DNA of 64,000 nucleotides from NCBI GenBank assembly GCA_030740765.1, contig JASLWR010000004.1, positions 24,873-88,872 of the forward strand. The letters are read 5' to 3'. Below, in pieces: positions 1 through 60,895 of the stretch (position 1 is the stretch's first letter; each line of letters starts with the position of its first letter). The translations under genes were made by a program, and so were the position numbers. A model generated the notes under the pieces. That model saw only the letters and a program-made list of their open reading frames with translations, searched no databases and was not told the DNA's origin. The DNA comes from Thermoplasmatota archaeon (lineage in GTDB: Archaea; Thermoplasmatota; Penumbrarchaeia; JASLWR01).

Positions 1-3000
1 CTGCCATATCACCCAGTGTAGAAAGATAAGCATCCAGTTCTGAAAGGTCACTGGTCTGTGATGGATCAGGGGGAGGTCCATCTGGCAACTCTAACGGTGG
101 GGTGTCGGGTGATTTAGGAATCGGTTCGGGGGGAAATTGCGGTGTCGATTCCATTGGTATTAAGGGTTCTTCCGGTAGGGGAAAGGGAGTTTCCATAGCA
201 CCAACAATCGGGAATGCGAAGGGCTGGACTGCCAGATCCGGAGTAGTGATCTGGGTCGGGGGTGCTGGATTCATGATTGTTTGATCCGAGGGGGAAGGTC
301 CGGGCGGAAGAGCCATTCTTTCAAGGTATTGCGGCCCCTGCTCAGTTGAAAATGAAGGGAGCGAGTATGCGGTGCTGCCTACAGTACCCATGCCTTGTCC
401 CGCCTGATTATTGGGAGTTTGTTGTGAGGATTGCCCGTACTGAGGTAACTGGGGCTGCCCGAACTGATTGGGCGATCCCCCACCTGATTGTTGAACGTTT
501 AGCCCCGGTCCCGGCGGAAGCATTAGCTGTGAGAATTGCATTCCAGGCATCCCGCCATGTCTTTGTGGCTGTGGGGCTGCCCCGTATCCTTGCTTCCCCG
601 TATACATGTGCTGACCCTGGGGATAAGGATGGGAACTAGGGCCGTAAGGGGATTGTTGGAATGGAGGAGGTGACGATGGCGGAACATCCTTCTTCCCGTT
701 CTTCTTTTTTCTCACTATAATCAAGATGATCAGGACAACGATGATGAGGGCGAGTATCCCCCCCAGGATAATGAATAGCATGGAGGAACCTTCGCCCAGT
801 ATCCCGGCACTTTCCGTGTTGACAATATCGGGCTCGCCTTCCGGTGAATCCTCCCCGTTATTCGGGTCGGTACCGGATTCCCGTTCGAATCCGTCGGAGA
901 AACCGTCCCCGTCGCTGTCCATCTCGTAATCGGCACTGCTGCTCACCGCGATCTTTATCTTTTCACTCTCATTGTAGCCGTGACCGTCTGACACGAATAC
1001 CGTTATGGTATGTTTTCCCGGAGCCAATCGTGCATTCATTACTGCACCTGTCCCTAAAGATCGGTTGGCGCTGACATTGGATGTCCAGTAATAGCTAAGA
1101 TTATCCCCGTCCTCGTCGAAGGAAGCGGATGCGTCGAATAAAATCACGCTGTCGAACCTGAATAACGAACCTTCATCAGGAGCTGATATTACCACATCCG
1201 GCCTGGAATTCACCCATACCCTGTACGGGATCGAAATATTGTAACCGGTACCCATCAGATCGTCGGCACGCCAGCGGATGTAATTATCGGTCCCCCAATC
1301 AAACTCCAGCTCCAATAGTACCTGGGTGGGATTGCCATCCACGACGTTTATTACCTTCTTCCATGGACCGTAATTATTTTCGTCGTCACCCCCGCCATTT
1401 GAGATGGAATATTCAATCGTTACCGGATCGACCCCGGTTCCATCGTCGAATATCTGTATGAAACATTCAACATTGTTGCTGTCAGCATACTCATCCTCAA
1501 GCGGTGTAAAAGAGCCAAAATGTACGGGAGAACGGTCTATTTTCAGGTTGAATTTATCGGATAATGTAAAGGGGTTCCCAACCAGATCAGTCCCTCTGAA
1601 CATTAGAAAATTATCCTTCCCTTCAGCGTAGTCGAAGGTCACCGTTATCTTATAACTGTTTTCAGCATCTTCGATAATATTTTCAGCATCTATGGACATC
1701 CATCCACCGAAATCGCCCGGACCAGAGGTTGATATCCTGGCTTCCAGGCTGCCGGGATCCACCCCGCTTCCTGCATCCCTTACAATTATACTGGACGTTA
1801 TTGTGTTTGTTTTGTACCATTCCGTCTCAGGCGAGATTACGTTTGCGAAATTTACAGGTGTGACGTCCACTTTTATATTTATCGAAGGAGATTCTGTAAA
1901 CCCGTTTCCCGAAATGTCCTTGGCACGCCATTTTATGTAATTGTCCTCACCTTCATGAAATATGTATTTGATATCAGGCATCATTGGTTCGCTCACTTCA
2001 GGTATCCACGCGGGGATCCAGAAATCGAAGCCGTGCTCGCTGCCGCTGGAAATAGAGTATTCGATGCTGCTGCCGTCAACCCCGGATCCTTCTCCATCAT
2101 AGATCTCGATGGAGCATTCCACGTCCGTGTGATTGTGCCATGAGCCGTCTTGTGGGGAAAAGTTCGAAAAGACGGGGGGGGTCAAGTCCACCAGTATGCC
2201 CGAGGTTGCGGCATCGCCAATGTTCCCCACCATGTCGATGCACCATACATAAATTTCTGCAAATCCCTCGTCCAGTTTATCTATCTTGATCTCCGTGTCG
2301 TTGATGAACGATCCGTTGATGGTTCCCGACTTATCGGTTCCGGAAAAATAATATCCAAGTAGACCCGAGGCTGGGTCCTCCACCCTATCCCAGGTAACGT
2401 ACATCTCGGCTAGCTTCGTATTCTCCGTCTCCTTGTCCTTGAAACCACCGGCACGACACTGCAGGTTAACGGGAAACAGCGGAGGGTCCGCATCGATCTT
2501 CACCGCAAATGTCAGATTCGTCATGCATATGCCTGTTCCGGGTATATTCTCGATTGTGATGAGATATTCTTCCTCCTCGTCCGTTATGTTTCCGGAAGTG
2601 AATATTATTTCGACGTTTTCACCCCTGCTTTCGTTATCCCACCAAGTTCTTCCGGAGCTGTCCGAAAGCTTGACATCGTAATAATCGTCATGGGGAAAAA
2701 TGTCGATGCTACCGGCATATTGCACTGTTATATTGCTAAGGTTTATACTTTCTTCACCTTGTATCCAAGCTTCCTCCCTCAAGGCTCCTTGGTATTCACC
2801 TATATAATCAGCCGTACCGAAAAAGTCCAGGTCGTTCTCGATTCGAAAGAGCCATGGGAACCGATCAACGGAATATTCACCTGTTTTTGCCGTTGTAAAA
2901 ACCAGGCAATCGATCAACTCCTCGTGTGGAAAAGTGAAATTGAAGATAAGAATGAAATTCAGGTACCACCTGTCCACACCGTTATTCGTGATGAAACAGT

Positions 3001-4063
3001 CGTTTATCAGTAACTGAACTGTCCCAACCTCGTCCTGCAGTTTGAAGAATTTGCCCTGGGTCCAATTGTAGCACAATGTGGCGTTGGTGGTATTGTAATC
3101 CAGGTGGACCTTCACGTTTGATACCTCATCGAGAGAGTCCATGGTGCTGACATTCAGGGTGAGGTTGTACGGTTGGTACTGGGCGTAGCAAATTTTGTCG
3201 TCGCCGGTGGGATTGACCAATTCAACGTTCTCTGCACTGGGTATGGAAGTCATACCCTCCATGGCCTCCAGGATCTCCTGTTGGGAAAGATACCTGGAGA
3301 AGATGGCGGCATCGTCTATCAACACATCCGCACCGCTGTTAGCGGAGATTGGTTTTCCACCCACACAAGGGTCCGTGGGGCAGTGGGAGCCCTGTGCACG
3401 CCGCGGAGATGTAGGAACGTTCTTTGCACCTGTAACCTTCAGAACACCGTCAACATAAATCTGGAGATTGTTCATATTGCACCGAATGGCGACATGATGC
3501 CACTGGCTGTTAGCCAGGTTCAAACCGTTTGCATACGTATTATAATTCGAATTGTCATTATCACTCCCTCCCCAGAAACGTATCTGTGATGAACTGGCAA
3601 GGTTCATAGTGTAGCCGTTTCGGTTGGTACAACAATCCCCGAACATCATCAGCCCCTTCTGGCTTCCAGAATTGACCTTGAACCAGCACATGAAAGTATA
3701 GGCGTTAGGCATATCGAGGTTTGCAAGAGGCCCGCCAACCTGAACACGATTCTGATCGCCCCCGGGGACCCGTAATGACCACCTTCCGTGTTTAGCGTCG
3801 TTGGAAAACGAGACTCCATGAAGTGTCCCGTCGTTCCCACCAGAAATCGACAGGTCCCTTGCCAGGTTTCCCCTGCCTTCCTCAAAATCATAGTACAGTG
3901 CCTCCGGCTGCAATCCTCTCCGGCGTGCGAAAGCAGGTTGAGCGGCTTCCATCTTCCCGATTTTAACGTCTTTGGACCTGTTTTCCTCAAATGCATGAGA
4001 TGATAAGAATACTGCATATGAAGAGACTAAAAGTAATATGACGATGAGTGATATAAAAAACAT
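1..4063 (-). CDS. Giant single-pass surface protein, paralog A (3' partial, C-terminus beyond window start). Signal peptide MFFISLIVILLLVSS, LamG/ConA-like N-terminal head, conserved ectodomain, DSDGDGFSDGFERE motif, TM helix, P/Q/G-rich cytoplasmic tail.
   Basis: ATG is at 4063-4061 (revcomp translation MFFISLIVILLLVSSYAVFLSSHAFEE). Hand translation of the same frame (codon top position = 1 mod 3) reads NSGADVLIDDAAIFSRYLSQ at about 3281-3340, YEMDSDGDGFSDG at about 890-928 and QTSDLSELDAYLSTLGDMA at 2-58. These match paralogs B-D. The frame is identical at both ends, so the ORF is open-ended and not listed by the ORF track. Internal stops were not exhaustively checked. Confidence 0.7.
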   Translation of the reverse strand, partial: MFFISLIVILLLVSSYAVFLSSHAFEENRSKDVKIGKMEAAQPAFARRRGLQPEALYYDFEEGRGNLARDLSISGGNDGTLHGVSFSNDAKHGRWSLRVPGGDQNRVQVGGPLANLDMPNAYTFMCWFKVNSGSQKGLMMFGDCCTNRNGYTMNLASSSQIRFWGGSDNDNSNYNTYANGLNLANSQWHHVAIRCNMNNLQIYVDGVLKVTGAKNVPTSPRRAQGSHCPTDPCVGGKPISANSGADVLIDDAAIFSRYLSQQEILEAMEGMTSIPSAENVELVNPTGDDKICYAQYQPYNLTLNVSTMDSLDEVSNVKVHLDYNTTNATLCYNWTQGKFFKLQDEVGTVQLLINDCFITNNGVDRWYLNFILIFNFTFPHEELIDCLVFTTAKTGEYSVDRFPWLFRIENDLDFFGTADYIGEYQGALREEAWIQGEESINLSNITVQYAGSIDIFPHDDYYDVKLSDSSGRTWWDNESRGENVEIIFTSGNITDEEEEYLITIENIPGTGICMTNLTFAVKIDADPPLFPVNLQCRAGGFKDKETENTKLAEMYVTWDRVEDPASGLLGYYFSGTDKSGTINGSFINDTEIKIDKLDEGFAEIYVWCIDMVGNIGDAATSGILVDLTPPVFSNFSPQDGSWHNHTDVECSIEIYDGEGSGVDGSSIEYSISSGSEHGFDFWIPAWIPEVSEPMMPDIKYIFHEGEDNYIKWRAKDISGNGFTESPSINIKVDVTPVNFANVISPETEWYKTNTITSSIIVRDAGSGVDPGSLEARISTSGPGDFGGWMSIDAENIIEDAENSYKITVTFDYAEGKDNFLMFRGTDLVGNPFTLSDKFNLKIDRSPVHFGSFTPLEDEYADSNNVECFIQIFDDGTGVDPVTIEYSISNGGGDDENNYGPWKKVINVVDGNPTQVLLELEFDWGTDNYIRWRADDLMGTGYNISIPYRVWVNSRPDVVISAPDEGSLFRFDSVILFDASASFDEDGDNLSYYWTSNVSANRSLGTGAVMNARLAPGKHTITVFVSDGHGYNESEKIKIAVSSSADYEMDSDGDGFSDGFERESGTDPNNGEDSPEGEPDIVNTESAGILGEGSSMLFIILGGILALIIVVLIILIIVRKKKNGKKDVPPSSPPPFQQSPYGPSSHPYPQGQHMYTGKQGYGAAPQPQRHGGMPGMQFSQLMLPPGPGLNVQQSGGGSPNQFGQPQLPQYGQSSQQTPNNQAGQGMGTVGSTAYSLPSFSTEQGPQYLERMALPPGPSPSDQTIMNPAPPTQITTPDLAVQPFAFPIVGAMETPFPLPEEPLIPMESTPQFPPEPIPKSPDTPPLELPDGPPPDPSQTSDLSELDAYLSTLGDMA

Positions 4064-4263
4064 TTTACTACTGGTCACTTGGGCCATTCGATCATTCCAT
4101 AGCTTGTTTATAACGATAAAGAGAGTGAACCATAAGGGCGATAGCTATCCGATTGCTTATCTTAATCATAGTATTAATTCATTAATAACTATTTGGTAAA
4201 ATATCCGGATTTGTCCTTTTCCAGTATTTTTTTAACAATTACCCATCACTAGCGGAATTTTCT

Positions 4264-7200
4264 CTAAATTGAATTGATTACCCCTTGCGTCTGGCATACC
4301 GGGCAGGTGACCAATGCCGGGAACTCGGCGATCTCCGCCATGTAATTATTGCCGCATGAATGACACTGCATCTGCAGGAATCCCCTTCGGTTACCGCCAC
4401 CGTCTGGTGGCGTAGGCCCGTTTACACTGCGCAACACCTTCGGCGTTGCTCCCCCCTCGGGAGCAAGCTCCCTACGGGGGAGAGGGGAAGCAGATTCTGC
4501 TTTTTCCTGAAGGAAGCTAGCTTCCGAAGGATGTAGCGGAGCGGAACGGTCTGCGGTCACCGAAGATGAAACCAACAGACCTGTCTGTTGGTGATTCATA
4601 GTTATCTCATTCGTCAATTGTGATGATGAGCCCTCCGGAGCCGGGGGAGCCATGTTTCCTTCCGGAACTGGCGGTGCGGCAGGCACCGTGGGTTCTTTAT
4701 ACATATCATCCAATGAAGAAAGATATGCATCGAGCTCGGACAGATCACTGGTCGGCGAAATACCTGCCGTGGGTGGACTAAGCCCAGCTGGGGCTTGGCT
4801 GGCAGTAGGGATCGAAGCCCCCTCCGGGGGGAACTGCGAGATTTCTCCCGGGGGAGATGAAGGTGATGGCGGTCCCGAAAAAAGCGTTCCCATGGCACCA
4901 ATGTCCGGTGAAGTGGGAGGGAGGACTGACAGATCGGGGCTTGTCATCGGGCTTGGTACCGCCGTATTAATAGTTGTTTGCTCTTCCATGGAAGCGGGTG
5001 CTGGAGGAAGTGCCATTCGTTCAAGATTTTGTACTCCCTGTTCGGTAGTGAATGAAGGAAGGGCATATGCCTGACCTGCCGTAAGATCGGTTCCTGGCCC
5101 CGTTTGATTGTAGAGAGGCTGTTGTGGTGCTTGAGCTTGACCTAATTGCGAAGAACCATACACGTCGGGTCCATGCGGGAGCAACGGGAGGGAGCCCTGT
5201 CCACCCGCCATCCCAACATATGGTGCCTGGAATTGGGGTGAGCCCCCGTATCCTTGCTGCCCGGGTGACATATACTGGCCCCGGGGATGGGGCAGCATAG
5301 CCTGCCCTTGTACTGAGTGCTGGATGGGTGCTTGGACGGATGGAGAAACCTCTTTTTCTTCTTTTTTCATTCTTTTTCTTACGATAAAAAATATTACCCC
5401 AATAAGTATGATCAGCAATAGAATTCCTCCGAGAATGAATAATAACAGTGAAGAATCTTTACTGAGAATACCCGCGGTTTCGGTTTCCACGATGTCTGGT
5501 TTACCGGGGGGACTATGGGCCCCATTATGGGGGTCGGTGCCTTTTTCACGCTCCAGACCGTCAGAGAAACCGTCCCCGTCGCTGTCGCGTTCATAATCGG
5601 CTGTAGCGCCCACCTCGATTTTAACTTTCTCGCTTACATTGTAACCGTGCCCGTCTGACACGAACAAGGTGATAGTATGTTTTCCTGGGGTCAGGATACC
5701 TCTCATTAGAACCTTTGAGCCGATTGAACGGTTCGCACTGACATTGGAGGACCAGTAATAGCTGAGATTGTCGCCGTCCTCATCACGTGATCCCGAGGCA
5801 TCAAAAAATATTTGACTGTCAAACCTGAAGTACACTCCCTGTTCGGGATCCGTGATTATCGCTTCAGGGCGGGAATTCACCCATACGCGGTACTCCCTAG
5901 ACTCATTGTAACCGGTACCCATCAGGTCGTCGGCGCGCCAGCGGATGAAATTTTCTTTTCCCCACTTGAATTCCACCTCCACCAGAACCTGTGCAGGATT
6001 TCCCGAAACCACGTTTTCCGCCTTTTTCCAGGGCCCAAAACTTTTACGGTCGCCCCCCGCCCCGTTCGCAACTGAATATTCAACCGTTGCCGGATCGACC
6101 CCTGAACCATCGTCCAGTATCTGGATGAAACATTCAACCGTCTCGCTGTCCCCGTACTCATCCCCGCCAGGTGTGAACGTCCCGAAATATACCGGAAAGG
6201 TATCAATTTTCAGATTGAATTTATCGGATAGGGTGAAGGGGTTGCCAACCACGTCCGTCCCACGGAACATAATGTAGTTATCTTTCCCTTCGGCATAACT
6301 GAATGTCACAGTGATTTCGTGTGTGTCTTCTCCAGCTTCAGTAATATTTTCGGGGTCAATCGGCATCCATTGGCCATAACTATTTTGACCCTCGGTGGAT
6401 ATCCTAGCTCCAAGGGTTGTAAGGTCCACTCCGCTTCCTGCGTCACTTACAGTGATAGTTGTGCTTATTTTATTTAGGTCGTACCATTCCTTTTGGGATG
6501 ATATCTCCTTGGCGAAATTGACCGGTGTAACGTCCACCTTCAAATTTACCGGAGAAGATTCAGCAAATCCGTTTCCCGAAATGTCCTTGGCACGCCATTT
6601 TATGTAATTGTCCTCTCCCTCAGGGAAGATGTATTTTACACTCGGAATTATAAGGTTTCCTCCTTCCGCGACCCATGCAGGTATCCATAGATCGGAACCC
6701 AGCCCCAGGCCTACTGAAACCGAGTATTCGATGGTACTGCCGTCGACTCCCGCTCCATCTCCGTCGTAGACCTCCACCGAGCAATCGATATCCGTGTGAT
6801 TGTGCCAAGAACCGTCCATGGGAGTATGGTTTGAAAAGACCGGCGCCGTCAGATCAACCAGTATGCTCGATGTGGCGGCCTCCCCAATGTTTCCCACCTT
6901 GTCCACGCACCACACGTAAATCTCAGCTTCTCCCTCGGTCAGCTTATCGATCTTGACCTCCGTATCATTGGTTAATGTCCCGTTAGTGGTTCCTGAATCG
7001 TCCATCTGGGAATAATAATATCCAAGGAGACCAGAAGCAGGGTCCTCAACGGCATCCCAGGTAACGTACATCTCGGGCTGATCCGTATTCCCCGTCTCCT
7101 TGTCCTTGAAACCTCCGGCGTGGCATATAAGATTGACCGGATACAGGGGTGCCTCAGCATCGATCTTCACGGGGAAGGTCAGATTAGTCATGCATATACC

Positions 7201-8751: not shown

Positions 8752-8772
8752 AAGTTGTGGGTATCATCCTCA

Positions 8773-8806
8773 GAAATATCAGTATGCACATGCATTCTGA
8801 TATTTC
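8773..8806 (-). terminator. 10-bp inverted repeat hairpin (gaaatatcag/ctgatatttc) in the spacer downstream of paralog C and upstream of paralog B.
   Basis: Perfect 10-bp stem with a 14-nt loop read directly; lies between the stop of 8879..13234 and the start of 4264..8751. Confidence 0.3.
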
Positions 8807-8878
8807 TACCGGATAAAACAACGTACAACCTGTATTTATATCTTATCCGAAGATGCAGCGGGAAGTCTTAAACCGAAG

Positions 8879-11800
8879 CTAGAGAGATTCGATCATTCCC
8901 TGTGTCTGGCAGACCGGGCAGGCGACCAGAGCCGGTAATTCCACTATCTCCGCTGAATAATTATTGCCGCAGGAATGACATTGCATGGTTATTTCATTCG
9001 TCACTGGAGCCGGGGCCCCCTCCGGAACCGATGGTATCGCTGGTGGAATCGCAGGTGGTGCAGTAGGCGATGCAACAGGTGGCGCAGGCTCTGGCGGTTT
9101 TGTCATGTCCTCGAGATATGCGAGATATGAATCAAGTTCGGACAGATCACCGGAACCCTCGGGTGGTACGGCAGGCACTTCCGGGATCATAGACGGGGTC
9201 GGCAGCGGTAATGGAAATACTGCTTCCACACCTGTAGGCGGCATTAGCGGCGGAGATATTGAAGGTGGTGCCGCTTCCATTGCATTGGGTGGTATTGGCG
9301 GTGCCGGTGATGAAGGTAGTGTATTATCCACTGGGGAAATATTTGTAGTATCAGCAATAGGCATCGGGGACCCAATATCGGGACCAAGTGGTGCCACGGA
9401 TGCCTGTATTGGAAATTCAAGACCTGTGAAAACCACTGGAGCGGGCGAAGGCTCGGGAGCAGGCGGAAGGGCCAATCTACCCAGTTCCTGCATTCCCTGG
9501 TCTGTTGAGAAAGTGGGAAGGAGATAGCTGCTGCCTCCTGCATATCCCGTATTCAAAGCTGCTGCCCCTGTCAGTGCCTGCCCGGGGGCGGCAGCCTGGA
9601 ACTGGACCGGGTTCACAAAACCGGGACCGGGAGCCAGCATCAAAGGCGGGGCTGGGGAACCCGGCATGCCGGCCATCGGCGCCGGCATAACTCCACCATA
9701 CCCTTGCACCAGCGGAGCATACTGCGCAGAATGCGGCCCCTGCCCGTATGGGGGCTGCCGGGGGAATGACGGCACTGGCGCCGCTACCTTCTCCTCTTTG
9801 GATTTCCTTTTTTTCCTGACTATGAAAAAGATGATCAGGATCAGTAATATGAGAAGCAGGATGCAGCCGAGTATAATTAAAAGCAGCGAAGAACTTTCTC
9901 CCAGTATCCCCGCACTTTCGGCAGGTACGATATCCGGCTCGCCCTCAGGGATCACGGCGCCGTTGTACGGATCGGTCCCGGATTCCCTCTCGAAACCGTC
10001 CGAGAAACCATCCCCGTCACTGTCCGTCTCGTAATCGGTCTTACTGCCGACCTCTATCCTTACATCCGTACTCTCGTTATAGCCGTGCCCGTCAAAAACG
10101 AACAACGTGATGATGTGTTTTCCGGGAGTCAATCTGCTGCCAAATAGGGCAAGGTGACTCATGGACTTGTTCGCGCTGACGTTGCTGGACCAGTAATAGC
10201 TAAGATTGTCCCCGTCCTCGTCGTATGAATCCGTAGCATCGAAATATATTTCCCTGTCGAATCTGAAATAGGATGCTTGATCAGGAGACGAAATTACTGC
10301 TTCCGGCCTGGAATTCACCCAAACTCTGTATGGTTTCGATATATTGTGACCTGTACCCACCTTATCGTCTGCACGCCAGCGGATGAAATTGTCCGGTCCC
10401 CAGTCGAACTCCAATTCCAGAAGAACCTGGGTAGGATTCCCGATGACCACGTTTACTACCTTTTTCCATGGTCTAAAACTATCATTGTCGCCTCCCGCCC
10501 CACTCGCCATGGAATACTCCACCGTTCCCGGGTCCACGCCTGAACCGTCATCCAATATCTCAACGAAACATTCAACAGTCTGCTGGTTGGAATATTCGTT
10601 CTCCTCCGGTGTGAAGGTGCCGAAATATACCGGCGAAGTATCTATTTTCAGATTGAATTTATCGGAAAGTGTGAAGGGATTGCCCACTATGTCCGTTCCC
10701 CTGAACATGATGTAGTTTTCGGTCCCTTCAGCATATGTGAATGTGACGCTTATCTCAAAGCCGTCTTCACCGGATTTGATTATATTTTCCGGTTCAATAC
10801 TCATCCACGAACGAAAGTCGGTTGGGCCCGACGTTGATATCCTCATTTCAAGACTCTCAGGGTCCACTCCGCTTCCTGCGTCGTTAACGGTGATCTTCGT
10901 AGTTATCGTTTTTTGGAGGTACCATTCCTCTTGTGGCGATATCGTTTGAGCGAAATTGACCGGAGTGTTGTCAATTTTTATATTTACGGGGGAGGATTCC
11001 ACGAAACCGTTTCCCGAAATGTCCTTGGCACGCCATTTTAGGTAATTGTTCTCCCCTTCGAGAAATACATATTTGACAACAGGTGTCATTGGTTCGGTCT
11101 TTTCGGGCATCCAGACGGGTATCCAGAGATCGAAACCGTGCACTCCGTTTTTGGACACTGAATATTCGATGGTGGCGCCATCGACACCGCCTCCCTTCCC
11201 ATCGTGGATATCAACCGAGCAATCGACATCCGTATGATTGTGCCATGAACCGTCCAAGGGAGTATAATTCGAAAAATAGGGTAATGACAGGTCAACCAGT
11301 ATCTCCGAGGCTGCGGCCCCACCGACATTCCCAACATTATCCACGCACCACACATATACCGGTACGGGTCCCTCGGGTAGCTCATTTATCTCGACCTCGG
11401 TTTCATTGGTAAACGATCCGTTCTCAGTGGTGGAATTATCCATAAGGGAATAATAATATCCTCTGAGACCCGAGGCAGGGTCTTCAACCTCATCCCAGGT
11501 GACGAAGACCTCTTGCTTGTTGGTATGTTCGGCGGACTTGCCTTTGAAGCTGTCGGGACGGCATTGGAGGTTCACCGGCGAAAGTGGCGCAGCCGCATCT
11601 ATTTTGAGGGGGAAATATAGATTCTTTGCACATACTCCTTCTTCCGGTATGTTCACTATGCTTATTTGATATTCCTCTTCCGGATCGGTGGCATTTCCGG
11701 ATATTGCCTCAATGGAAACGCTCTTACCGCTGGATTCGTTGTCCCACCATTCATTAGCCATTCTGTCCCGTACCACCACATCGAAGAAATTATCGTCCGG

Positions 11801-13234
11801 ATGAACATTCCCGGAACCTTCGTAGACCACGGTCATGTTGCTAAAAATCAGTTTTTCCTTCCCCCTTATCCAGTTTCCCCTATCAACAATACCCTGATAT
11901 TCACCCTCCACCACGGTCTCTCCCACGAGCTCAAGGTCATTTTCTACACGGAATAGATAAGGGAATCGATCAAGGTTGAATCTCCCGGAGCTTCCGGTTG
12001 TATTTATAAAACAATCTATAAGCTCCTCGTGAGGGAATGTGAAGTCTAGCACGAAGGAAAAATTTATCCACCATTTCTCCACATTATTGTTGGAAAACGC
12101 CGAATCACCCAGCAGTTCCAGATGATTTCCGAGGTCATGAACCTTGTAAAAGTTCTTTTGTGTTCCATTGAATCCGAGGCTTATGTTGGTGTTGTTGTAA
12201 TCTATGTAGATTCGGAGGTCGGAAAGATCGTCAAGAGATTCGAAGGTGGTGACGTTGATACCCAGTTTATAGGAACGGTACCCGGCATAGCATACTGCGC
12301 TTTTATTATCCGAATCAATCAGGTTGACCGATTCGGGCTCGGGGGGACGGGCCGTGGGGAAATTATCCTTAATCATATCGATATATTTTACCATCTGCAG
12401 AAGTTCGTTGTTTCCGCGGTTGCCCCAGTCGAAGGTCATCATGTTCATCATGACATACCCTTCGTCCAGCACGTATTCTATGAAAGCCGGTTTATTGTTC
12501 GCGTTGGACCAGAGAATGTCATTCCACTTGTTGGTTTCGGGATTTGTTCCGAGGTTCGCTCCACCGGAGTCCGCAAGCATACCCGGCGCGGTAACATAAC
12601 CGTGGCAGGTGGTACCCCAGCCCTGAAAATTATTGGCATTAAGTCCATTTCCGCCGTAGCCCTGACCGGTAATCCATTCGTGATCGTTATCAGCCACCGT
12701 AGGGTTCTCGTCGGTGTTGCCGGATTGCTGGTAACTACCGAAGTTCGAACCACCCGGTCCGGTAACATCCTGTCCGGAATTATGCGCGGCATTTGCAACG
12801 AAGATACCACCTTTCTTCACATATTTCTCGATAATACCCCCGTTCATCATTGTCTTTAATGATCCGTCTGCAATATCACCCTGGCAGCCAGTATAAATAG
12901 CATAATAGCGGTCGAAGAGGTACTCTGAATTGTGCTGGGCCGTTACCCCGGGCTGCTCCACATCAAAAGGGATTCCTCTGTTTGTTAGATGATTTTGTAG
13001 AGTGTTGGTACGATCCCCGCCCGAAGAGCAGACCAGCACCTTGTTCGCGGCTCTACTGGACCACTGTTTTCCGCCAATTGTGCCTGCATTTCGAATTTTC
13101 TCATCAATTGATTCAACGGTACTTATGGAATGGTCGCTCCAATCCGTGAGTAATGGGACACTAATTGCAGGGATTATCAATAGTATACAAAGTAACAGGG
13201 GAAGACTGCGTAAGTGGGAAATCACGCTTTTCAT
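8879..13234 (-). CDS. Giant single-pass surface protein, paralog C (1451 aa); same architecture, ThuA/GATase1-like head, C-terminal Zn ribbon MQCHSCGNNYSAEIVELPALVACPVCQTQG.
   Basis: Long ORF in the track. Signal peptide MKSVISHLRSLPLLLCILLIIPAISVP. Motifs FDATDSYDEDGDNLSYYW (PKD) and DSDGDGFSDGFERE. TM helix, then a P-rich tail. Confidence 0.85.
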   Translation of the reverse strand: MKSVISHLRSLPLLLCILLIIPAISVPLLTDWSDHSISTVESIDEKIRNAGTIGGKQWSSRAANKVLVCSSGGDRTNTLQNHLTNRGIPFDVEQPGVTAQHNSEYLFDRYYAIYTGCQGDIADGSLKTMMNGGIIEKYVKKGGIFVANAAHNSGQDVTGPGGSNFGSYQQSGNTDENPTVADNDHEWITGQGYGGNGLNANNFQGWGTTCHGYVTAPGMLADSGGANLGTNPETNKWNDILWSNANNKPAFIEYVLDEGYVMMNMMTFDWGNRGNNELLQMVKYIDMIKDNFPTARPPEPESVNLIDSDNKSAVCYAGYRSYKLGINVTTFESLDDLSDLRIYIDYNNTNISLGFNGTQKNFYKVHDLGNHLELLGDSAFSNNNVEKWWINFSFVLDFTFPHEELIDCFINTTGSSGRFNLDRFPYLFRVENDLELVGETVVEGEYQGIVDRGNWIRGKEKLIFSNMTVVYEGSGNVHPDDNFFDVVVRDRMANEWWDNESSGKSVSIEAISGNATDPEEEYQISIVNIPEEGVCAKNLYFPLKIDAAAPLSPVNLQCRPDSFKGKSAEHTNKQEVFVTWDEVEDPASGLRGYYYSLMDNSTTENGSFTNETEVEINELPEGPVPVYVWCVDNVGNVGGAAASEILVDLSLPYFSNYTPLDGSWHNHTDVDCSVDIHDGKGGGVDGATIEYSVSKNGVHGFDLWIPVWMPEKTEPMTPVVKYVFLEGENNYLKWRAKDISGNGFVESSPVNIKIDNTPVNFAQTISPQEEWYLQKTITTKITVNDAGSGVDPESLEMRISTSGPTDFRSWMSIEPENIIKSGEDGFEISVTFTYAEGTENYIMFRGTDIVGNPFTLSDKFNLKIDTSPVYFGTFTPEENEYSNQQTVECFVEILDDGSGVDPGTVEYSMASGAGGDNDSFRPWKKVVNVVIGNPTQVLLELEFDWGPDNFIRWRADDKVGTGHNISKPYRVWVNSRPEAVISSPDQASYFRFDREIYFDATDSYDEDGDNLSYYWSSNVSANKSMSHLALFGSRLTPGKHIITLFVFDGHGYNESTDVRIEVGSKTDYETDSDGDGFSDGFERESGTDPYNGAVIPEGEPDIVPAESAGILGESSSLLLIILGCILLLILLILIIFFIVRKKRKSKEEKVAAPVPSFPRQPPYGQGPHSAQYAPLVQGYGGVMPAPMAGMPGSPAPPLMLAPGPGFVNPVQFQAAAPGQALTGAAALNTGYAGGSSYLLPTFSTDQGMQELGRLALPPAPEPSPAPVVFTGLEFPIQASVAPLGPDIGSPMPIADTTNISPVDNTLPSSPAPPIPPNAMEAAPPSISPPLMPPTGVEAVFPLPLPTPSMIPEVPAVPPEGSGDLSELDSYLAYLEDMTKPPEPAPPVASPTAPPAIPPAIPSVPEGAPAPVTNEITMQCHSCGNNYSAEIVELPALVACPVCQTQGMIESL

Positions 13235-13390
13235 TCAATTCAACCTCTTTCCATACTGACCGACAGCCCTTACCGCCCGGCGTTGGTCTGCCTTTGGAGT
13301 CATATGATAACAAATCCATAGTCTTATGAATAAATAATGCTTTCGTTTGAAAAGGATAAAACCAGCACGAATATTCTCATCGATGCCGGA

Positions 13391-16300
13391 TCATATTGAT
13401 TCTATAACTCCTTGCGTCTGGCAAACCGTGCAGGTGACCAGTGCAGGGAACTTAGCAATCTCCGCTATATAGTTATTGCCGCAGGAATGGCACTGCATAG
13501 TAATTTTATTAGTCGGGGGAACCGGACTTTCTTCCGGAACCGGGGGTACGTCGGAAGGTGTTGGCTCCGGTGGCGGGGACAATCCACCCAGGGTAGTTAG
13601 ATATGTGTCGAGTTGGGATAAATCACTATCCGCTGAAGTGTCTATTGGAGGTACGCCAAGCACTAAAGATGAAGTGCTGCTAGGGGAAATAGTGGTGGGT
13701 TCCGGTGGAGCCGGGGGTGCTTCACCACTTAGCGGAATGGGTGCTGGAGGCGATTGGAAAGGGTTTTCCATTGCACTTACCCCAGGTAATAATGCAGGTT
13801 GGGCTGAAAGATCCGGAGCGGTCATCTGGGTTGGAGTGAACGCTCCAATCATTCCTTGATCTTCCGAAGGAGGTGGTCCCGGCGGTAAGGCCATTCTGTC
13901 GAGGTTCTGCGGCCCCTGATCGGTACTGAATAATGGTAATGAATATGCGGTACTGCCTGTCATCCCTGTCCCAGACTGACCGTAAAGAGCCAGCTGCTGT
14001 GGCTGAGTTTGCTGGACTTGATTCGGGCCGGAATATTGAGTGTTTGATATATCAGGTACTATCGACTGTATTAGAGGAGGATTTTGAGCTCCCCGCATCC
14101 CCATAACGGCTGCCTGATATTGCGCCATTTCCCCGTACCCTTTCTGCTCAACAGGAATAAATTGACCCTGGGGATAAGGATGCTGGGCCGGTCCGTACAT
14201 TGATTGCGGCATAGGTGACCGGATCGGAACCGAAACATCTCTCACTTCGTCCTTTTTTCTTCTCCTCACAATAAATATGATGACCAAAACCAGTATGGTC
14301 AAAAATAACACAATACCAAGAATGACGAAGAATAGCGAAGAGCCTCCTCCGAGTATGCCACCGCTTTCGGAGATGACGATATCAGGCTCGCCATCCGGGC
14401 TAATGGCACCGTTGTATGGGTCGGATCCTGATTCCCGTTCCAGTCCGTCTGAGAATCCGTCCCCGTCGCTGTCCCGCTGAAAATCGACCTGGCTGATCAC
14501 CTCTAGCTTAACTTTCGTACTCTCGTTGTAACCGTGTCTGTCCGAAACGAATAATGTGATCGTATGTTTTCCAGGGGCTAATCCGGCGCTGAAATAGGCG
14601 TCGAATCCGATTGAACGATTCACACTGACATTTGAGGACCAGTAATAGCTAAGATTGTCCCCATCCTCGTCACTTGAACCGGAAGCATCAAAAGTAATTT
14701 CGCTATCGAACCTGAAATACGACCCTGGATCGGGTGAGGCGATTGCCGCCTCCGGCCTGGAATTCACCCATACCCGGTATGGCAGCGATATGTTGAGCCC
14801 GGTACCCATCATGTCGTCGGCACGCCACCGGATAAAATTGTCATATCCCCAATCGAATTCCAGCTCTATCAGAACCTGCGTGGGATTTCCCGCAACAACA
14901 TTTACCACCTTTTTCCATGGCCCGAATATCTTTTCGTCGCCCCCCATCCCGGTGCCCCCTGCTCCATTTGCCACGGAATACTCAACCGTCGCTGGATCCA
15001 CCCCCGAACTGGCATCGAGTATCTGGATGAAACATTCCACCTTCTCGTTGTCTGCATATTCGTTCTCATCCGGTGTGAATAAACCAAAATAAATGGGAGA
15101 TGTATCGATTTTCAGATTGAATTTATCGGAGAGAGTGAAGAGATTGCCTACCATATCGGTTCCTCTGAACATAATGTAGTTATCCTTTCCCTCCGCGTAT
15201 TTGAAAGTCACTGTTATCTCAAAGCCGTCTTCACCGGATTCGCTGATGTTTTCGACATCTACGGACTCCCACCGGCCGAAATCGTTGGGGCTAGACGTGG
15301 ATATCCTTGCTCCAAGACTGTCCGGGTTCACACCGCTTCCAATGTCGTTAACCAATATCTTTGTGGTTATTTCTTCATGATCATACCATTCCACCTGAGG
15401 TGATATCAGCTTTGCAAAATTGATAGGAGTGGTGTCCACTTTTATATTGTACGAGGGTGATTCGACAAACCCATTTCCAGTGATGTCCTTTGTGCGCCAT
15501 TTAATATAATTTTCCTCGCCCTCCTGAAATACGTATTTGATATTTGGCACCATGGGTTCATTCAACTCGGGTATCCACGCGGGAATCCAGAAATCGAAAC
15601 CGTGCATCCCATCATTGGACACGGAGTACTCGATAGTGCTGCCGTCCACACCGGATCCAGTGCCATCATAAATCTCAATCGAGCAGTCGATATCAGTATG
15701 ATTGTGCCATGAACCATCCTCCGGGGTGTGATTCGAAAATACTGGCGGTGTCAGGTCCACAAGTATACCGGATGAGGCGGCCGTGCCGATATTTCCGACC
15801 TTGTCCACACACCAAACGTAAATTTCCGCGAATTCCTCGTTCAGTTTCTCGATCTTGACCTCTGTGACATTGGTGAATGTCCCGTTACCAGTTCCCGACT
15901 TATCCACCGGGGAATAATAATAGCCCATCAGACCCGATGAGTGGTCCTCAACCGGATCCCATGTGACGAACATCTCGGCGCGATTGGTATGCTCGGTCTC
16001 CTTGTCCTTGAAATCATTGGCATGGCACTTTAAGTTGACGGGGAAGAGAGGCGGGTCCGCATCTATTCTTAGTGGAAAGGTCAGATTTGTCATGCAAATG
16101 CCTGTTCCGGGTATGTTCTCGATGGTGATGAGATATTCTTCTTCCGGGTCCGTATCGTTTCCGGAAGTGATGTTTATCTCGATATTTTCTCCCATGCTCT
16201 CGTTATCCCACCAGGCGCTCCCGTTATTATCGGCAACCCTGACATCGAAATAGTCATCATCGGGGTAGATGTCCGGAGCACCTGCATATCGTACCTTGAG

Positions 16301-17620
16301 ATTGCTGACCTTAATCCTTTCCCTGCCCCGTATCCAATCGTTCTTTTTCAACTCACCCTGATATTCACCTGTAAGATCGGGAATACCAACCAGCTCCAGG
16401 TCATTCTCGACCTTGAAAAGGTGCGGAAAGCGGTCCGTTCTTACAATTCCCGTGATGGCAGCAGTACTGATATAGCAGTCCACCAGTTCTTCATGTGGGA
16501 ATGTGAAATTGAAAATTACTGAAAAATTCAACCACCACCGCTCGACCCCGTCCGTGGAAACCTTGGAATCGTCAACATTCAATTGAACGTGCCCGTCCAA
16601 GTCCTGATATTTGTAGAAGCGAGATTGTGTCCAGTTGTAGCATAGTGTAGCATTGGTAGTATTATAATCAAGGAAAACCTTGACCTCGGAAACCTCGGTA
16701 AGGTCCCTTGCGGAGGTGACATTCACGCTGAGGGTGTAGTTTCTATGACGGGCATAGCATATATTATTCCCGTCACCCTGTCCCAAAATGGCTGCGTTAT
16801 CGGTATAGGCCGTGAGGTCCACTTCCAGCCAACATGCTACTGGCGTCCCACCCTGGTTCTGACCAACCGTGAGAAGAACTTCGGAGCCGAGCGGAATGGT
16901 GGTTATCTCACCATGGGACGCGGAACTACCGGAGAACGATGGCCGGTTCATGTTTCTAACCATGGGATGATTCACGGATGCCACGAAATTATGGCTATTA
17001 CCATTTCCATTTGTCCTTACACCGAAAGGACCGGGGACACCCCTGGACCACCGGCGTTGGTAATTCGTACCGAACATGTCTATCAATATTCCACCGTCGT
17101 TCACGTATTTCTCCATTGAAGGGACCAGTGACTCCATCTGGTTCAGATGCTGGTTCGGCTGGTACTCGGAAATAATGATCATCCGGTAAATGTTCGGATC
17201 GAAATCGTTTGCATTGATCCCGCCAGCGCTTTTCTGGGTGAATTGTATTCCTCTGTTGTTCATCTCCCGGCGCCAGCCGTCAGACCATCCCTGGTGATCC
17301 CATATGATAAGTATGGCTCCCGAATCCGCATGGGTGGGCCATAACCAATCGAAAGTATTGATGATAAAATAACGGGAATGTTGGCCGTTGCCGTAGCCGT
17401 AACTTGCTATGGTCCCCGTGACAAAATAAATGCCTTTGTCACCAGCGGTACGTTTGTTGGACGAGATGGGCGGAGGCTTTGAGGGGCTCTTTACGTTCAA
17501 CCCCACATCGTGGTTTTCGCTGAGAAGTATTTCAGAGCAAATAGTAAGATATCCCGTTCCTATGAAACACAAAACAACAGCTATCGACACCACCACGGGC
17601 CATGGATTCGTTCTACTCAT
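13391..17620 (-). CDS. Giant single-pass surface protein, paralog D (1409 aa); same architecture, C-terminal Zn ribbon MQCHSCGNNYIAEIAKFPALVTCTVCQTQG.
   Basis: Long ORF in the track. Signal peptide MSRTNPWPVVVSIAVVLCFIGTG. Motifs FDASGSSDEDGDNLSYYW (PKD) and DSDGDGFSDGLERE. TM segment, then a P/Q-rich tail. Confidence 0.85.
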   Translation of the reverse strand: MSRTNPWPVVVSIAVVLCFIGTGYLTICSEILLSENHDVGLNVKSPSKPPPISSNKRTAGDKGIYFVTGTIASYGYGNGQHSRYFIINTFDWLWPTHADSGAILIIWDHQGWSDGWRREMNNRGIQFTQKSAGGINANDFDPNIYRMIIISEYQPNQHLNQMESLVPSMEKYVNDGGILIDMFGTNYQRRWSRGVPGPFGVRTNGNGNSHNFVASVNHPMVRNMNRPSFSGSSASHGEITTIPLGSEVLLTVGQNQGGTPVACWLEVDLTAYTDNAAILGQGDGNNICYARHRNYTLSVNVTSARDLTEVSEVKVFLDYNTTNATLCYNWTQSRFYKYQDLDGHVQLNVDDSKVSTDGVERWWLNFSVIFNFTFPHEELVDCYISTAAITGIVRTDRFPHLFKVENDLELVGIPDLTGEYQGELKKNDWIRGRERIKVSNLKVRYAGAPDIYPDDDYFDVRVADNNGSAWWDNESMGENIEINITSGNDTDPEEEYLITIENIPGTGICMTNLTFPLRIDADPPLFPVNLKCHANDFKDKETEHTNRAEMFVTWDPVEDHSSGLMGYYYSPVDKSGTGNGTFTNVTEVKIEKLNEEFAEIYVWCVDKVGNIGTAASSGILVDLTPPVFSNHTPEDGSWHNHTDIDCSIEIYDGTGSGVDGSTIEYSVSNDGMHGFDFWIPAWIPELNEPMVPNIKYVFQEGEENYIKWRTKDITGNGFVESPSYNIKVDTTPINFAKLISPQVEWYDHEEITTKILVNDIGSGVNPDSLGARISTSSPNDFGRWESVDVENISESGEDGFEITVTFKYAEGKDNYIMFRGTDMVGNLFTLSDKFNLKIDTSPIYFGLFTPDENEYADNEKVECFIQILDASSGVDPATVEYSVANGAGGTGMGGDEKIFGPWKKVVNVVAGNPTQVLIELEFDWGYDNFIRWRADDMMGTGLNISLPYRVWVNSRPEAAIASPDPGSYFRFDSEITFDASGSSDEDGDNLSYYWSSNVSVNRSIGFDAYFSAGLAPGKHTITLFVSDRHGYNESTKVKLEVISQVDFQRDSDGDGFSDGLERESGSDPYNGAISPDGEPDIVISESGGILGGGSSLFFVILGIVLFLTILVLVIIFIVRRRKKDEVRDVSVPIRSPMPQSMYGPAQHPYPQGQFIPVEQKGYGEMAQYQAAVMGMRGAQNPPLIQSIVPDISNTQYSGPNQVQQTQPQQLALYGQSGTGMTGSTAYSLPLFSTDQGPQNLDRMALPPGPPPSEDQGMIGAFTPTQMTAPDLSAQPALLPGVSAMENPFQSPPAPIPLSGEAPPAPPEPTTISPSSTSSLVLGVPPIDTSADSDLSQLDTYLTTLGGLSPPPEPTPSDVPPVPEESPVPPTNKITMQCHSCGNNYIAEIAKFPALVTCTVCQTQGVIESI

Positions 17621-37213: not shown

Positions 37214-37215
37214 CT

Positions 37216-60774: not shown

Positions 60775-60780
60775 TACATC

Positions 60781-60895
60781 CGCAGGAATCCTCTTCGGTA
60801 ACCCCCACCGTTTGGTGGGGGCGGAGAAGAGGAAGCAGATTCCTGCGTTTCCGAGGATGAAACCCACAGATTCATCTGTGGGTGATTCATTTATT
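60781..60895 (+). repeat. Intergenic copy (~115 nt) of the hairpin-rich repeat also found inserted at 4372-4596
   Basis: Its first 22 nt (cgcaggaatcctcttcggtaac) pair as an imperfect long inverted repeat with 60827-60848 (gaagaggaagcagattcctgcg); perfectly paired arms are cgcaggaatc/gattcctgcg and ctcttc/gaagag. Inner hairpins cccccaccgtttggtggggg and cccacagattcatctgtggg. Ends in gtgattcat, like the copy at 4596. Confidence 0.55.

Follow-up and report, generated by a model that had tools for sequence, protein, structure and literature searches.

Tandem head-swapped surface proteins with a predicted cytoplasmic zinc ribbon in a marine Thermoplasmatota archaeon

The 64,000-nucleotide stretch of DNA analysed here (the window) comes from an uncultured marine Thermoplasmatota archaeon and begins with a tandem array of large surface-protein genes on the minus strand, at positions 1-17620 (Table 1). 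The original prediction of four co-oriented paralogous genes with one architecture held for these genes, A to D, but the count of four did not: a fifth paralogue lies beyond the window start, as shown by contig L001, whose sequence agrees at 100% identity with window positions 1-14063. The same contig completes gene A, whose last 58 codons, ribbon included, fall beyond the window and are visible only there; full-length A has 1420 aa and its C-terminal end is CHSCGNNYNAEISELPSLVTCTVCQTQGAIESL. The mechanically called reading frame of B extends to an upstream GTG at 8751, giving 1495 aa, and D has the same sequence as NCBI MAG protein QGH39_00275 (Candidatus Thermoplasmatota archaeon). Reading frames are intact in all copies, and the insertion in B is a structured dispersed repeat element that sits immediately N-terminal to the ribbon. 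The proteins share one order of parts, which runs from a hydrophobic signal/anchor segment at the N terminus through the variable head, the conserved all-beta stalk, a TSP3 motif, one transmembrane (TM) helix and a tail to the ribbon.

Table 1. Coordinates of the array and of the adjoining gene, in window positions except where contig L001 is named
Feature	Position	Strand	Remarks and equivalents
Paralogue A (laminin-G head)	1..4063	-	3' end cut by window; alternative upstream ATG at 4087
Paralogue B	4264..8706	-	1480 aa from ATG at 8706; head without Pfam match
Putative C4 zinc ribbon of B	4267..4368	-	
In-frame repeat-element insertion in B	4369..4596	-	228 nt, 76 codons; between ...NEITM and QCHSC
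Paralogue C	8879..13234	-	1451 aa; head without Pfam match
Putative C4 zinc ribbon of C	8882..8983	-	
Paralogue D	13391..17620	-	1409 aa; head without Pfam match
Putative C4 zinc ribbon of D, QCHSCGNNYIAEIAKFPALVTCTVCQTQGVIESI	13394..13495	-	
Acidic amphipathic motif SDLSQLDTYL of D, predicted short helix	13598..13627	-	also A 23-52, B 4720-4749, C 9122-9151
Tail motif 1 of D, YSLPLFSTDQGPQNLDRMALPPGP	13874..13945	-	also A 296-367, B 4996-5067, C 9455-9526
Juxtamembrane Tyr/Gln/Pro block YGPxxHPYPQGQ[YF]..QxGYG of D	14132..14197	-	A 581-646
Single TM helix of D, then RRRKK	14267..14356	-	also A 713-790, B 5380-5454, C 9818-9895
Conserved ectodomain core of D	14357..16759	-	equivalents A 791-3190, B 5455-7857, C 9896-12292
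TSP3-type calcium-binding motif of D, DSDGDGFSDGLERESGSDP	14417..14473	-	also A 863-919, B 5530-5586, C 9968-10024
Variable head of D	16760..17620	-	others A 3191-4063 (LamG), B 7858-8706, C 12293-13234
Fifth paralogue, olfactomedin head	L001:14357-18721		
Divergently transcribed 1959-aa type-I protein	18468..24347	+	part of stalk shared, E 5e-45 to core profile

The stalk, about 800 aa long and 62-70% identical among paralogues, was modelled as roughly eight Ig/FN3/PKD-like beta-sandwiches (all beta, pLDDT 83.9). The calcium-type motif foreseen in it recurs as DSDGDGFSDG[LF]ERE[KS]G[TS]DP in all four window copies, which scored 25.1-30.5 bits with TSP3_bac (PF18884), at or above the cut-off of 25 bits. 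The PKD domain that had also been proposed was supported in fold, by a PKD-type beta-sandwich in the model, but not in sequence: the Pfam models PF18911/PF00801 reached 16.5-20.7 bits in three copies, compared with gathering thresholds of 27 and 23.5, and copy C had no Pfam match to a PKD model. Foldseek neighbours of the stalk were contactin, titin, GhpA, CEA, ICAM-5 and SiiE (E 1e-13 to 1e-6). In the model, tandem Ig/FN3-like domains project a head, as in Ig-like adhesins and cell-adhesion molecules, an architecture that is a kind and not a homologous family.

Pairwise identity among the heads is at most 23%. The head of A matched LamG, a lectin fold (E 8e-20, Pfam), and that of the fifth paralogue the olfactomedin propeller (E 3.5e-40, Pfam); the other three of the five (B, C and D) had no above-threshold Pfam/NCBIfam model or recognizable fold, so ligand binding by the heads is an extrapolation from two of them. 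The head of D recurs in P0049, a 2425-aa parallel beta-helix/lectin protein, and a Peptidase_C25 surface protease gene immediately downstream of the fifth paralogue encodes a similar TM helix and tail. These lectin-type heads, the recurrence in P0049 and the adjoining peptidase would all suit a scaffold for nutrient capture or enzymes, with polymer-binding or catalytic heads serving particle-attached heterotrophy and a tail that is only a spacer. However, searches of the heads against Pfam/NCBIfam and the PDB detected no catalytic domain, and such a scaffold gives no reason for the ribbon to be better conserved than anything else in the protein, making this account unlikely. Its extracellular half overlaps with the explanation that we favour below.

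Each protein has just two hydrophobic segments, the N-terminal one included, consistent with the single TM helix expected after the ectodomain, and a basic cluster of the RKKKK type directly follows that helix. N-glycosylation sequons number 17-22 per ectodomain versus 0-2 per tail. The ectodomains of B-D have 20-22, an approximately twofold enrichment over the 10-12 (s.d. 3) expected from shuffles, and no enrichment over shuffles was seen in the tail, which has no cysteines besides the ribbon's four. The positive charges after the helix, the restriction of sequon enrichment to the ectodomain and the placement of the cysteines together predict a cytoplasmic tail, in agreement with the original prediction; an extracellular tail, named beforehand as a refuting outcome, was looked for and not found.

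After the TM helix, the tail runs for 291-371 aa rich in Pro, Gln, Ser and Gly, comprising a disordered Pro/Gln/Tyr-rich stretch of 250-340 aa and then the C-terminal C4 ribbon. AlphaFold predicted it to be disordered except at the ribbon and at a short helix on the SDL motif, and tails without the ribbon are 37-47% identical among the five paralogues. The juxtamembrane block includes a P and two Y that are invariant when tails are aligned across the family. Tail motif 1 was recovered in all four window copies as YxLPxF[ST]TxQGxQxLxRxALPPxP, much as first described, and its Y, L, P, F, T, G, Q, A, L, P and P are invariant family-wide. The second anticipated motif, SDLSELDxYL, was likewise present in 4/4 copies, as [SG]DLS[EQ]LDxYL, but is limited to 10 of 48 relatives, all from the closest subfamily. 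No DNA-binding, HTH, ZAS or enzymatic domain of Pfam or NCBIfam matched the tail. Because unrelated surface proteins of the same organism also have long disordered tails, part of the tail may be a habit of the lineage and not a specific device.

Conservation peaks in the ribbon, at 75-86% identity among the five paralogues. The C terminus that had been called invariant, CHSCGNNYxAEIxxxPALVxCxVCQTQG, was confirmed in B, C and D within the window; for A it could be seen on L001. Chance is not an issue for the array, because the paralogues match one another at E = 0 in sequence searches and the C, H, C, Y, P, C, C and G of the ribbon are invariant across 41 relatives. It stands at the C-terminal end in 44 of 48 family members; a few members end without it, in PPLPPPE or PPPPA, so not every copy requires it. 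AlphaFold gave four strands (pLDDT 87-94), and the arrangement CHSC-x16-CxVC has the two knuckles of an MJ0042-type ribbon (a CxxC pair about 16-20 residues apart in a small beta ribbon), suggesting that it binds zinc. The isolated ribbons scored below the corresponding models, at 10.7-13.7 bits with TIGR02098 (cut-off 20.9) and 13-18 bits with Zn_ribbon_4/5 (PF13717 and PF13719; cut-offs 30.3 and 29.3). A structural-neighbour search with the predicted ribbon, proposed at the outset, returned generic fold matches, none of them significant; at the top was the ZitP zinc finger (PDB 2nb9; probability 0.94, TM 0.59, r.m.s.d. 2.1 Å over 40 columns, E 0.4). The net charge of -3 to +1 and the near absence of Lys and Arg argue for protein binding over nucleic-acid binding. 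We also considered and rejected a transmembrane transcription regulator or anti-sigma-type receptor, given that charge and the lack of an HTH or ZAS match in the tail.

Homologous ribbons occur elsewhere. One, strongly basic, forms the C terminus of a helical, non-membrane protein of 7,274 aa (hhalign probability 98.3%, E 1e-14, 44% identity) that is present as fragments in the same MAG and has neither signal peptide nor membrane segment; others are C-terminal on the lectin/Ig type-I proteins P0097 (Kelch + LamG + Ig) and P0137 (10x Big_7 + TSP3). These observations bear on the idea that the tail is extracellular or that the genes are decaying duplicates, the 'ribbon' being a disulfide knot or meaningless. 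We consider this highly improbable: the positive cluster is C-terminal of the helix and sequons are enriched on the N-terminal side only, the frames are intact, the ribbon is invariant between species whose stalks are merely 45-55% identical, and its homologue is found on a protein without a signal peptide or membrane segment.

An exhaustive profile search of 1.84 billion representatives identified 79 relatives in total. The family is confined to three GTDB species, and the comparison of related genomes that had been advised showed arrays in all three, with 2-8 tandem copies. HMM searches of the ectodomain and tail were run, as had also been advised, and full-length homology to a characterized family was looked for and not found. 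There was no above-threshold Pfam/NCBIfam model for the tail or ribbon, no sequence relative in the PDB and no family described in the literature for the tail or the whole protein; database homologues are called 'hypothetical protein' wherever their source names them, and the majority are unnamed. The statement that this is not a described family thus stands.

Synteny around the arrays consists only of a thioesterase, the 1959-aa protein and propionyl-CoA carboxylase, with no conserved candidate partner gene beside the arrays and no conserved transcription factor near them. The 1959-aa protein, the synteny of whose gene with the array is conserved in a related species, carries a CxxxC..CxxC site of its own, and its acidic/Pro-rich tail terminates in PPPPPPPE. 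Signalling by regulated proteolysis—ectodomain binding or shedding, intramembrane cleavage and action of the freed tail on a target, like Notch or an anti-sigma factor—would draw on the type-I architecture with its conserved intracellular domain, on the Peptidase_C25 gene directly 3' of the fifth paralogue and on a presenilin/SPP-family intramembrane protease gene in the window (58738-60774; PF06550, E 1e-68). Presenilin homologues are common in archaea. This protease gene is 41 kb from the array, however, neither a DNA-binding nor an enzymatic domain is present in the tail, the charge of the ribbon is acidic to neutral and a nearby conserved transcription factor is absent, leaving this route distinctly improbable.

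The proteins could instead form a structural coat (S-layer or glycocalyx) on an archaeon that lacks a wall, with the helix and tail just anchoring it and the ribbon aiding packing or oligomerization under the membrane. Like archaeal S-layer glycoproteins with a C-terminal anchor, they are predicted to be N-glycosylated, are beta-rich and type-I, and some S-layer glycoproteins have PKD domains (1l0q). Unlike the array, S-layer glycoproteins lack both the ribbon and a long, conserved tail in the cytoplasm, and they do not usually form large head-swapped arrays; an S-layer is usually built from one or two abundant species, whereas the arrays here hold from 5 to at least 12 paralogues whose heads are unrelated. 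S-layer/PGF-CTERM models found no match (Pfam and NCBIfam at E up to 0.01), an invariant ribbon and linear motifs more conserved than the ectodomain would be superfluous for a mere anchor, and the same ribbon ends a giant protein without a membrane segment. We therefore regard the coat as doubtful. Membership among S-layer/PGF-CTERM archaeosortase substrates was separately rejected, as no model matched and the helix, trailed by about 290-370 residues, is not at the extreme C terminus.

We favour, at roughly even odds, the reading that these are type-I surface glycoproteins resembling adhesion receptors, in which the ribbon docks the tail onto a common cytoplasmic partner. On the outside, the exchangeable, ligand-binding head would sit on a rigid stalk that includes a calcium-binding TSP3 motif, and tandem duplication with head swapping would create a panel of binding specificities. 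Inside, all paralogues would present the same module, with a stop-transfer cluster of basic residues, then about 250 aa of disordered tail holding the invariant short motifs YGPxxHPYPQGQY, LPPGP and YxLPxFSTxQGxQNLxRMALPPGP and, in this subfamily, the acidic helix SDLSELDxYL, and finally the C4 ribbon. The ribbon may act as a protein-protein docking knob, its putative target being one shared cytoplasmic partner or scaffold to which all receptors are tied, and the linear motifs may recruit or regulate additional partners. The proteins might serve in signalling, in anchoring or as plain coating.

The extracellular part resembles Ig-superfamily cell-adhesion molecules and bacterial Ig-like adhesins (contactin, ICAM-5 and CEA; SiiE and GhpA) in using an Ig/FN3 bead-string to project a head, although at about 10% identity and with so generic a fold the likeness need not reflect common descent. 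The eukaryotic molecules are type-I and bind adaptors through short-motif tails, but lack a zinc ribbon, and the bacterial adhesins have no cytoplasmic tail. For the combination of membrane anchor, disordered linker and partner-binding zinc ribbon, there are three precedents: the ZnR-linker switch of GltJ in Myxococcus (PMC11135422), ZitP–PopZ (PMC5182065) and CdpC–FtsZ1 in Haloferax (bioRxiv 10.64898/2026.07.16.738847). GltJ belongs to the Agl-Glt focal adhesions of Myxococcus xanthus, where its ribbon (ZnR) binds a linker motif and then MglB (PMC11135422). Like the array proteins, it has a cytoplasmic four-cysteine ribbon and a long disordered linker bearing a conserved motif; in GltJ, a partner domain recognizes proline-rich sequences, and surface adhesion is coupled to the cell interior. 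It differs in being bacterial, with an N-terminal ribbon, the opposite topology, a GYF domain and an outer part that is TonB-like and lacks both Ig stalk and lectin head. With MJ0042-type models the array ribbons reach 10-18 bits where the cut-offs are 21-30, too low for membership of that class by sequence. ZitP similarly is a membrane-tethered cytoplasmic ribbon that docks on a scaffold, the PopZ polar matrix (PDB 2nb9; PMC5182065), but is alphaproteobacterial, with an N-terminal ribbon and a DUF3426 outer domain. CdpC (HVO_0399, DUF7093) of Haloferax volcanii, unlike the array proteins, has no ectodomain or TM helix, attaches by an amphipathic helix and is a single 346-aa gene. DUF7093 did not appear in the Pfam results for the whole proteins or, with E allowed up to 10, for the five ribbons. 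The array proteins also lack the second, N-terminal zinc ribbon and amphipathic helix of the CdpC type, having hydrophobic signal/anchor N termini and, in the tail, the cysteines of one ribbon only. The two share an archaeal host, membrane attachment, a disordered linker (about 240 aa in CdpC) and a C-terminal zinc ribbon (about 40 aa in CdpC), so that their tails are built alike and are similar in size, and in CdpC the ribbon cysteines are required to bind FtsZ1 (bioRxiv 10.64898/2026.07.16.738847).

Four paralogous, co-oriented genes (A to D) occupy the minus strand at the start of the window, and D is identical to the NCBI protein QGH39_00275 from the same MAG, annotated as 'Candidatus Thermoplasmatota archaeon'. 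The succinate dehydrogenase flavoprotein, used to place the organism, had its closest relative, self excluded, at only 64% identity, and that lineage label was therefore kept. Positions 1-14063 of the window are 100% identical to a JGI metagenome contig, L001, which could therefore be used to read past the window edge. On L001 the full A protein measures 1420 aa, its C terminus being the zinc ribbon seen in the other copies (CHSCGNNYNAEISELPSLVTCTVCQTQGAIESL). It is followed by a fifth paralogue, by a Peptidase_C25 protein whose tail is acidic and disordered, and by an asparagine synthetase gene (PF03590, AsnA). The original prediction of a four-gene array was right about the four genes, but the array has five members in all; likewise, its claim of a ribbon in every copy holds for A on L001, but that fourth ribbon lies outside the window. 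The sequences upstream of the five paralogues do not align with one another (mean column identity 39%), and we therefore claim no common promoter element. The window contained no tRNA and no Rfam family reaching its gathering score. Elsewhere in the window, a BrxL-like Lon protease gene lies among TCA-cycle genes; two small ORFs, neither of them matching Pfam, come before it, and its neighbourhood held no other BREX gene; the sole Pfam match of a separate 1418-aa protein was to C-terminal HEAT repeats.

Coordinates of features in the window and on other contigs (window positions unless a contig is named; L numbers denote contigs from metagenomes or related genomes)
Feature	Location	Strand	Details
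Gene A	1-4063	minus	cut, extends past window start
Gene B	4264-8706	minus	1480 aa from ATG; 1495 aa from upstream GTG
Gene C	8879-13234	minus	1451 aa
Gene D	13391-17620	minus	1409 aa
Fifth paralogue	L001:14357-18721		1454 aa; same genome, past window start
Peptidase_C25 protein	L001:18859-23487		1542 aa; gingipain-type, type-I membrane protein
Repeat inserted in B	4369-4596	minus	228 nt
Intergenic repeat	60777-60887	minus	111 nt
Further repeat copies	L004:8767-8887; L002:13229-13342; L002:17653-17765; L013-L022		
Polyproline ending	18468-24347	plus	
Polyproline ending	29007-29648	minus	
Possible mobile-element scar	29727-31700		435-aa ORF
BrxL-like Lon protease	36222-38628	plus	BrxL_N + BrxL_ATPase, E 2e-93
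HEAT-repeat protein	52447-56703	minus	1418 aa
Presenilin/signal-peptide-peptidase family protease	58738-60774	plus	PF06550, E 1e-68

The paralogues differ most at their N termini. Their heads, the first ~285-320 residues, are unrelated to one another (≤23% identity): that of A has a laminin-G/ConA-like fold (E 8e-20) and that of the fifth copy is an olfactomedin domain (E 3.5e-40), a domain familiar mainly from animals, and the heads of B, C and D had no Pfam match and no PDB sequence match at E up to 1. The stalk that follows has a core of ~800 residues with 62-70% identity between paralogues, which AlphaFold predicted to be all-beta, a string of ~8 sandwich domains (mean pLDDT 83.9); its Foldseek neighbours were contactin-2, titin, the GhpA grappling hook, CEA, ICAM-5 and the SiiE adhesin, at ~10% identity. 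The PKD domain proposed for this ectodomain fell below the Pfam threshold by sequence but was backed by the fold, and the proposed calcium-type motif, DSDGDGFSDG[LF]ERE[KS]G[TS]DP, scored above the TSP3_bac cut-off in every copy. Outside the cell, the proteins would form an adhesion or capture device, in which interchangeable, partly lectin-type heads are held out on a rigid, glycosylated stalk whose base has a calcium site, and the ectodomain has probably diversified by duplication and head replacement.

Hydrophobic segments number exactly two per protein: the signal or anchor at the N terminus, and a single helix around residue 1090-1140. Four independent features predict that the tail beyond this helix is cytoplasmic, in agreement with the single-pass topology first proposed. 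RKKKK-type residues directly follow the helix, forming a positive cluster on its C-terminal side; the ectodomains of B-D carry 20-22 sequons each, about twofold the 10-12 (sd 3) expected from shuffling, versus 0-2 in the tail, without enrichment; the tail has no cysteines besides the four in its ribbon; and a homologous ribbon occurs on a protein without any membrane segment. These features argue against an extracellular tail, which, together with the notion that the genes are decaying duplicates, we consider very improbable.

Pro, Gln, Ser and Gly abound in the tail, which comprises 291-371 residues. When 16 diverse relatives were aligned, an ordered series of blocks emerged: RKKKK; YGPxxHPYPQGQYxPxxQGYG (P, Y and Y invariant); LxLPPGP; YxLPxFSTDQGxQNLxRMALPPGP (Y, L, P, F, T, G, Q, A, L, P and P invariant); a variable Pro-rich spacer, containing [SG]DLS[EQ]LDxYL in the window's subfamily; and the C-terminal EITMQCHSCGNNYxAEIxxLPAxVTCPxCQTQGMIESL. 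Ribbon residues C, H, C, Y, P, C, C and G were invariant among 41 relatives, bearing out the description of a conserved tail with short motifs and a terminal C4 ribbon. AlphaFold predicted a disordered tail (pLDDT 41-60), with a slight rise at the fourth block and a short helix at the SDL motif, ending in a confident four-stranded ribbon (pLDDT 87-94), the fold prediction that the original note had called for. The motifs resemble eukaryotic PPG/GYF ligands, LD motifs or pYxxP sites, a likeness not used as evidence.

The ribbon is the best-conserved segment of the whole protein, with 75-86% identity between paralogues versus 37-47% for the remaining tail, and between species its pattern is kept where stalk identity falls to 45-55%. 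It looks to be the part of the protein under the strongest purifying selection. Beside this distribution of constraint, a purely structural coat is an unlikely account of the proteins, and nutrient-capture scaffolds with a passive tail are more doubtful still. Inside the cell, a flexible tether, invariant short motifs and the terminal ribbon would together make a docking device. The net charge of the ribbon on surface proteins is only -3 to +1; as it has no basic surface, its partner is more probably a protein than a nucleic acid, and a nucleic-acid-binding ribbon was rejected on these charge data.

Database searches placed the proteins in no characterized family, as the original prediction had supposed. 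Whole proteins matched only TSP3_bac and LamG in Pfam, plus a sub-threshold PKD, and had no meaningful match in NCBIfam, on which grounds an S-layer or PGF-CTERM family was rejected. The isolated ribbon gave only generic sub-threshold zinc-ribbon matches (Zn_ribbon_19/8/4, RpoP, S27e); against MJ0042_CXXC it scored 10-14 bits (cut-off 20.9), below what would place it in the MJ0042/ZitP-GltJ family, and a test for the CdpC/DUF7093 family was likewise negative. The ribbon profile found no true sequence relative in the PDB, where generic rubredoxin or ZitP fragments were treated as Cys-pattern noise. A weak half-ribbon match (MQCHSCxNxxxxxIxxxP, E 3e-4) to the microsporidian ribosome-dormancy factor MDF1 (6rm3 chain SNN) is probably noise of the same kind. 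The nearest structural neighbour, the ZitP zinc finger, was not significant (E 0.4, TM 0.59). A full-length search of 5.8 billion clustered proteins returned 51 relatives, each unnamed or 'hypothetical'. A word-indexed search with the 41-aa ribbon profile gathered only four candidates and gave a single 41-aa fragment, and an exhaustive HMM search was used instead; with the tail profile against 1.84 billion representatives, it returned 79 proteins, the majority with the same stalk. Only 3 of 185,579 GTDB species representatives, all 'uncultured archaeon' MAGs, encode the family, and our literature search found no description of it. This is an undescribed family of unusual design and narrow distribution.

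Every genome carrying the family has it in tandem arrays. The MAG ERP003628_co1_33 has eight consecutive copies on one contig, three on a second and one on a third, and shares with the window the genes adjoining the array (a divergently transcribed gene of ~1960 aa, a thioesterase and propionyl-CoA carboxylase); no conserved partner gene was found in the arrays' flanks. The ribbon has been lost from a few family members, whose C termini read PPLPPPE or PPPPA. This type of C terminus, polyproline capped by Glu or Ala (PPLPPPPE, PPPPPPPE, PPPPA), is the second to recur: it is carried by ribbon-less members and by unrelated type-I surface proteins of the genome, the examples being two proteins in the window (table) and P0042, P0044, P0074, P0095 and P0116 from the databases. 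It may be an alternative tail-end signal.

The junction of disordered tail and ribbon also hosts a dispersed repeat. In paralogue B, a stop-free, in-frame insertion of 228 nt (76 codons) lies exactly between NEITM and QCHSC, and its ends are matched by an intergenic element of 111 nt (37 codons), the short form of the repeat. In a related species, three paralogues carry this element at the corresponding junction, again in frame. The four short copies have a multi-hairpin structure in common, with 37 predicted pairs, 4 of them showing compensatory double changes. Metagenome contigs contained ten exact-core matches in six different flanking contexts (intergenic copies); the short form was identical in eight of the ten, and the reading frame MNHPQMNLWVSSSETQESASSSPPPPNGGGYRRGFLRM was open in eight, with a stop codon in none. 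The repeat matched no Rfam family. This MITE-like element, dispersed and structured, has a length divisible by three and is tolerated inside the disordered tail; it resembles the palindromic elements of Rickettsia, which are inserted into genes in frame. Separately, at 30-32 kb, where GC content drops to 0.40, a basic, transposase-like ORF with an N-terminal CxxC..CxxC and no Pfam match adjoins a truncated beta-helix/pectinesterase-like ORF; the region may be a mobile-element scar.

The ribbon is a reusable module, which the tail search also found closing further proteins at the C terminus. P0097 (Kelch propeller, two LamG, sialidase-type lectin, Ig) and P0137 (ten Big_7 domains, TSP3) have a membrane helix before it; P0103 (7,274 aa), P0100 (7,686 aa) and P0108 (2,009 aa) have no membrane segment. 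Four partial proteins from the window's own MAG (QGH39_01405, QGH39_07470, QGH39_09265 and QGH39_12690) fall in the P0103 cluster. Profile-profile comparison aligned the two ribbon sets end to end to the C terminus (probability 98.3%, E 1e-14, 44% identity); the window and 22 loci contained no further small ribbon-bearing proteins. The 7,274-aa protein is acidic, helical and rich in Glu, Leu, Ala and Lys, even its most hydrophobic run of 19 residues falls short of what a membrane helix requires, and no Pfam domain explains the giant proteins (7,274-7,686 aa), whose fragments carry the JGI label 'RpoP' because of the ribbon. Their ribbon is strongly basic (+6 to +9), in contrast to that of the surface proteins. 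Relative to known surface adhesins and receptors, what is new is a conserved cytoplasmic tail with a terminal zinc ribbon common to a giant cytoplasmic protein.

We favour an adhesion receptor with a docking tail (probability about 0.5), and regard the receptor or adhesin originally proposed as the best available interpretation. Signalling by regulated proteolysis, an idea prompted by the adjacent C25 protease and by a presenilin-type protease encoded in the window, is improbable. The latter, an intramembrane aspartyl protease, has an unexplained N-terminal extension of ~470 aa. More speculatively, and with low probability, there could be an archaeal linkage of cortex to surface, the prokaryotic equivalent of focal adhesions or of a membrane skeleton, with the docking ribbon as its common plug tying a panel of lectin-headed, Ig-stalk receptors to the 7,274-aa cytoplasmic protein. 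The tie would run through the receptors' acidic C-terminal ribbons and linear motifs, by ribbon-to-ribbon pairing (acidic versus basic) or a shared docking site. In a bolder extension, C25 shedding followed by presenilin-type intramembrane cleavage would free the tail as a signal.

Accounts of archaeal cell surfaces usually centre on S-layers and short anchors, and to our knowledge almost nothing is known of how archaea couple surface contact to the cell interior. As a docking plug, the ribbon would offer a ~35-residue handle for finding an intracellular partner. A Pfam/NCBIfam domain definition would make dozens of 'hypothetical proteins' recognizable. The reach is limited to a narrow, uncultured lineage, and the functions proposed throughout are those that we infer. 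A partner would let one ask whether some archaea link adhesion to a cortical scaffold or division protein, as the following systems do through similar ribbons. The C-terminal ribbon of Haloferax CdpC binds FtsZ1 (bioRxiv 10.64898/2026.07.16.738847). In the focal adhesions of Myxococcus, the GltJ ribbon binds first a linker motif, then MglB (PMC11135422), and in Caulobacter the ZitP ribbon binds PopZ (PMC5182065). The window proteins share with these three, in which partner binding is known, the logic of membrane attachment, disordered linker and small ribbon, as a functional analogy only. With eukaryotic adhesion receptors they share a layout of lectin head, Ig stalk, one membrane pass and a disordered tail with short linear motifs, to which the archaeal family adds a terminal zinc ribbon under stronger constraint than any extracellular part.
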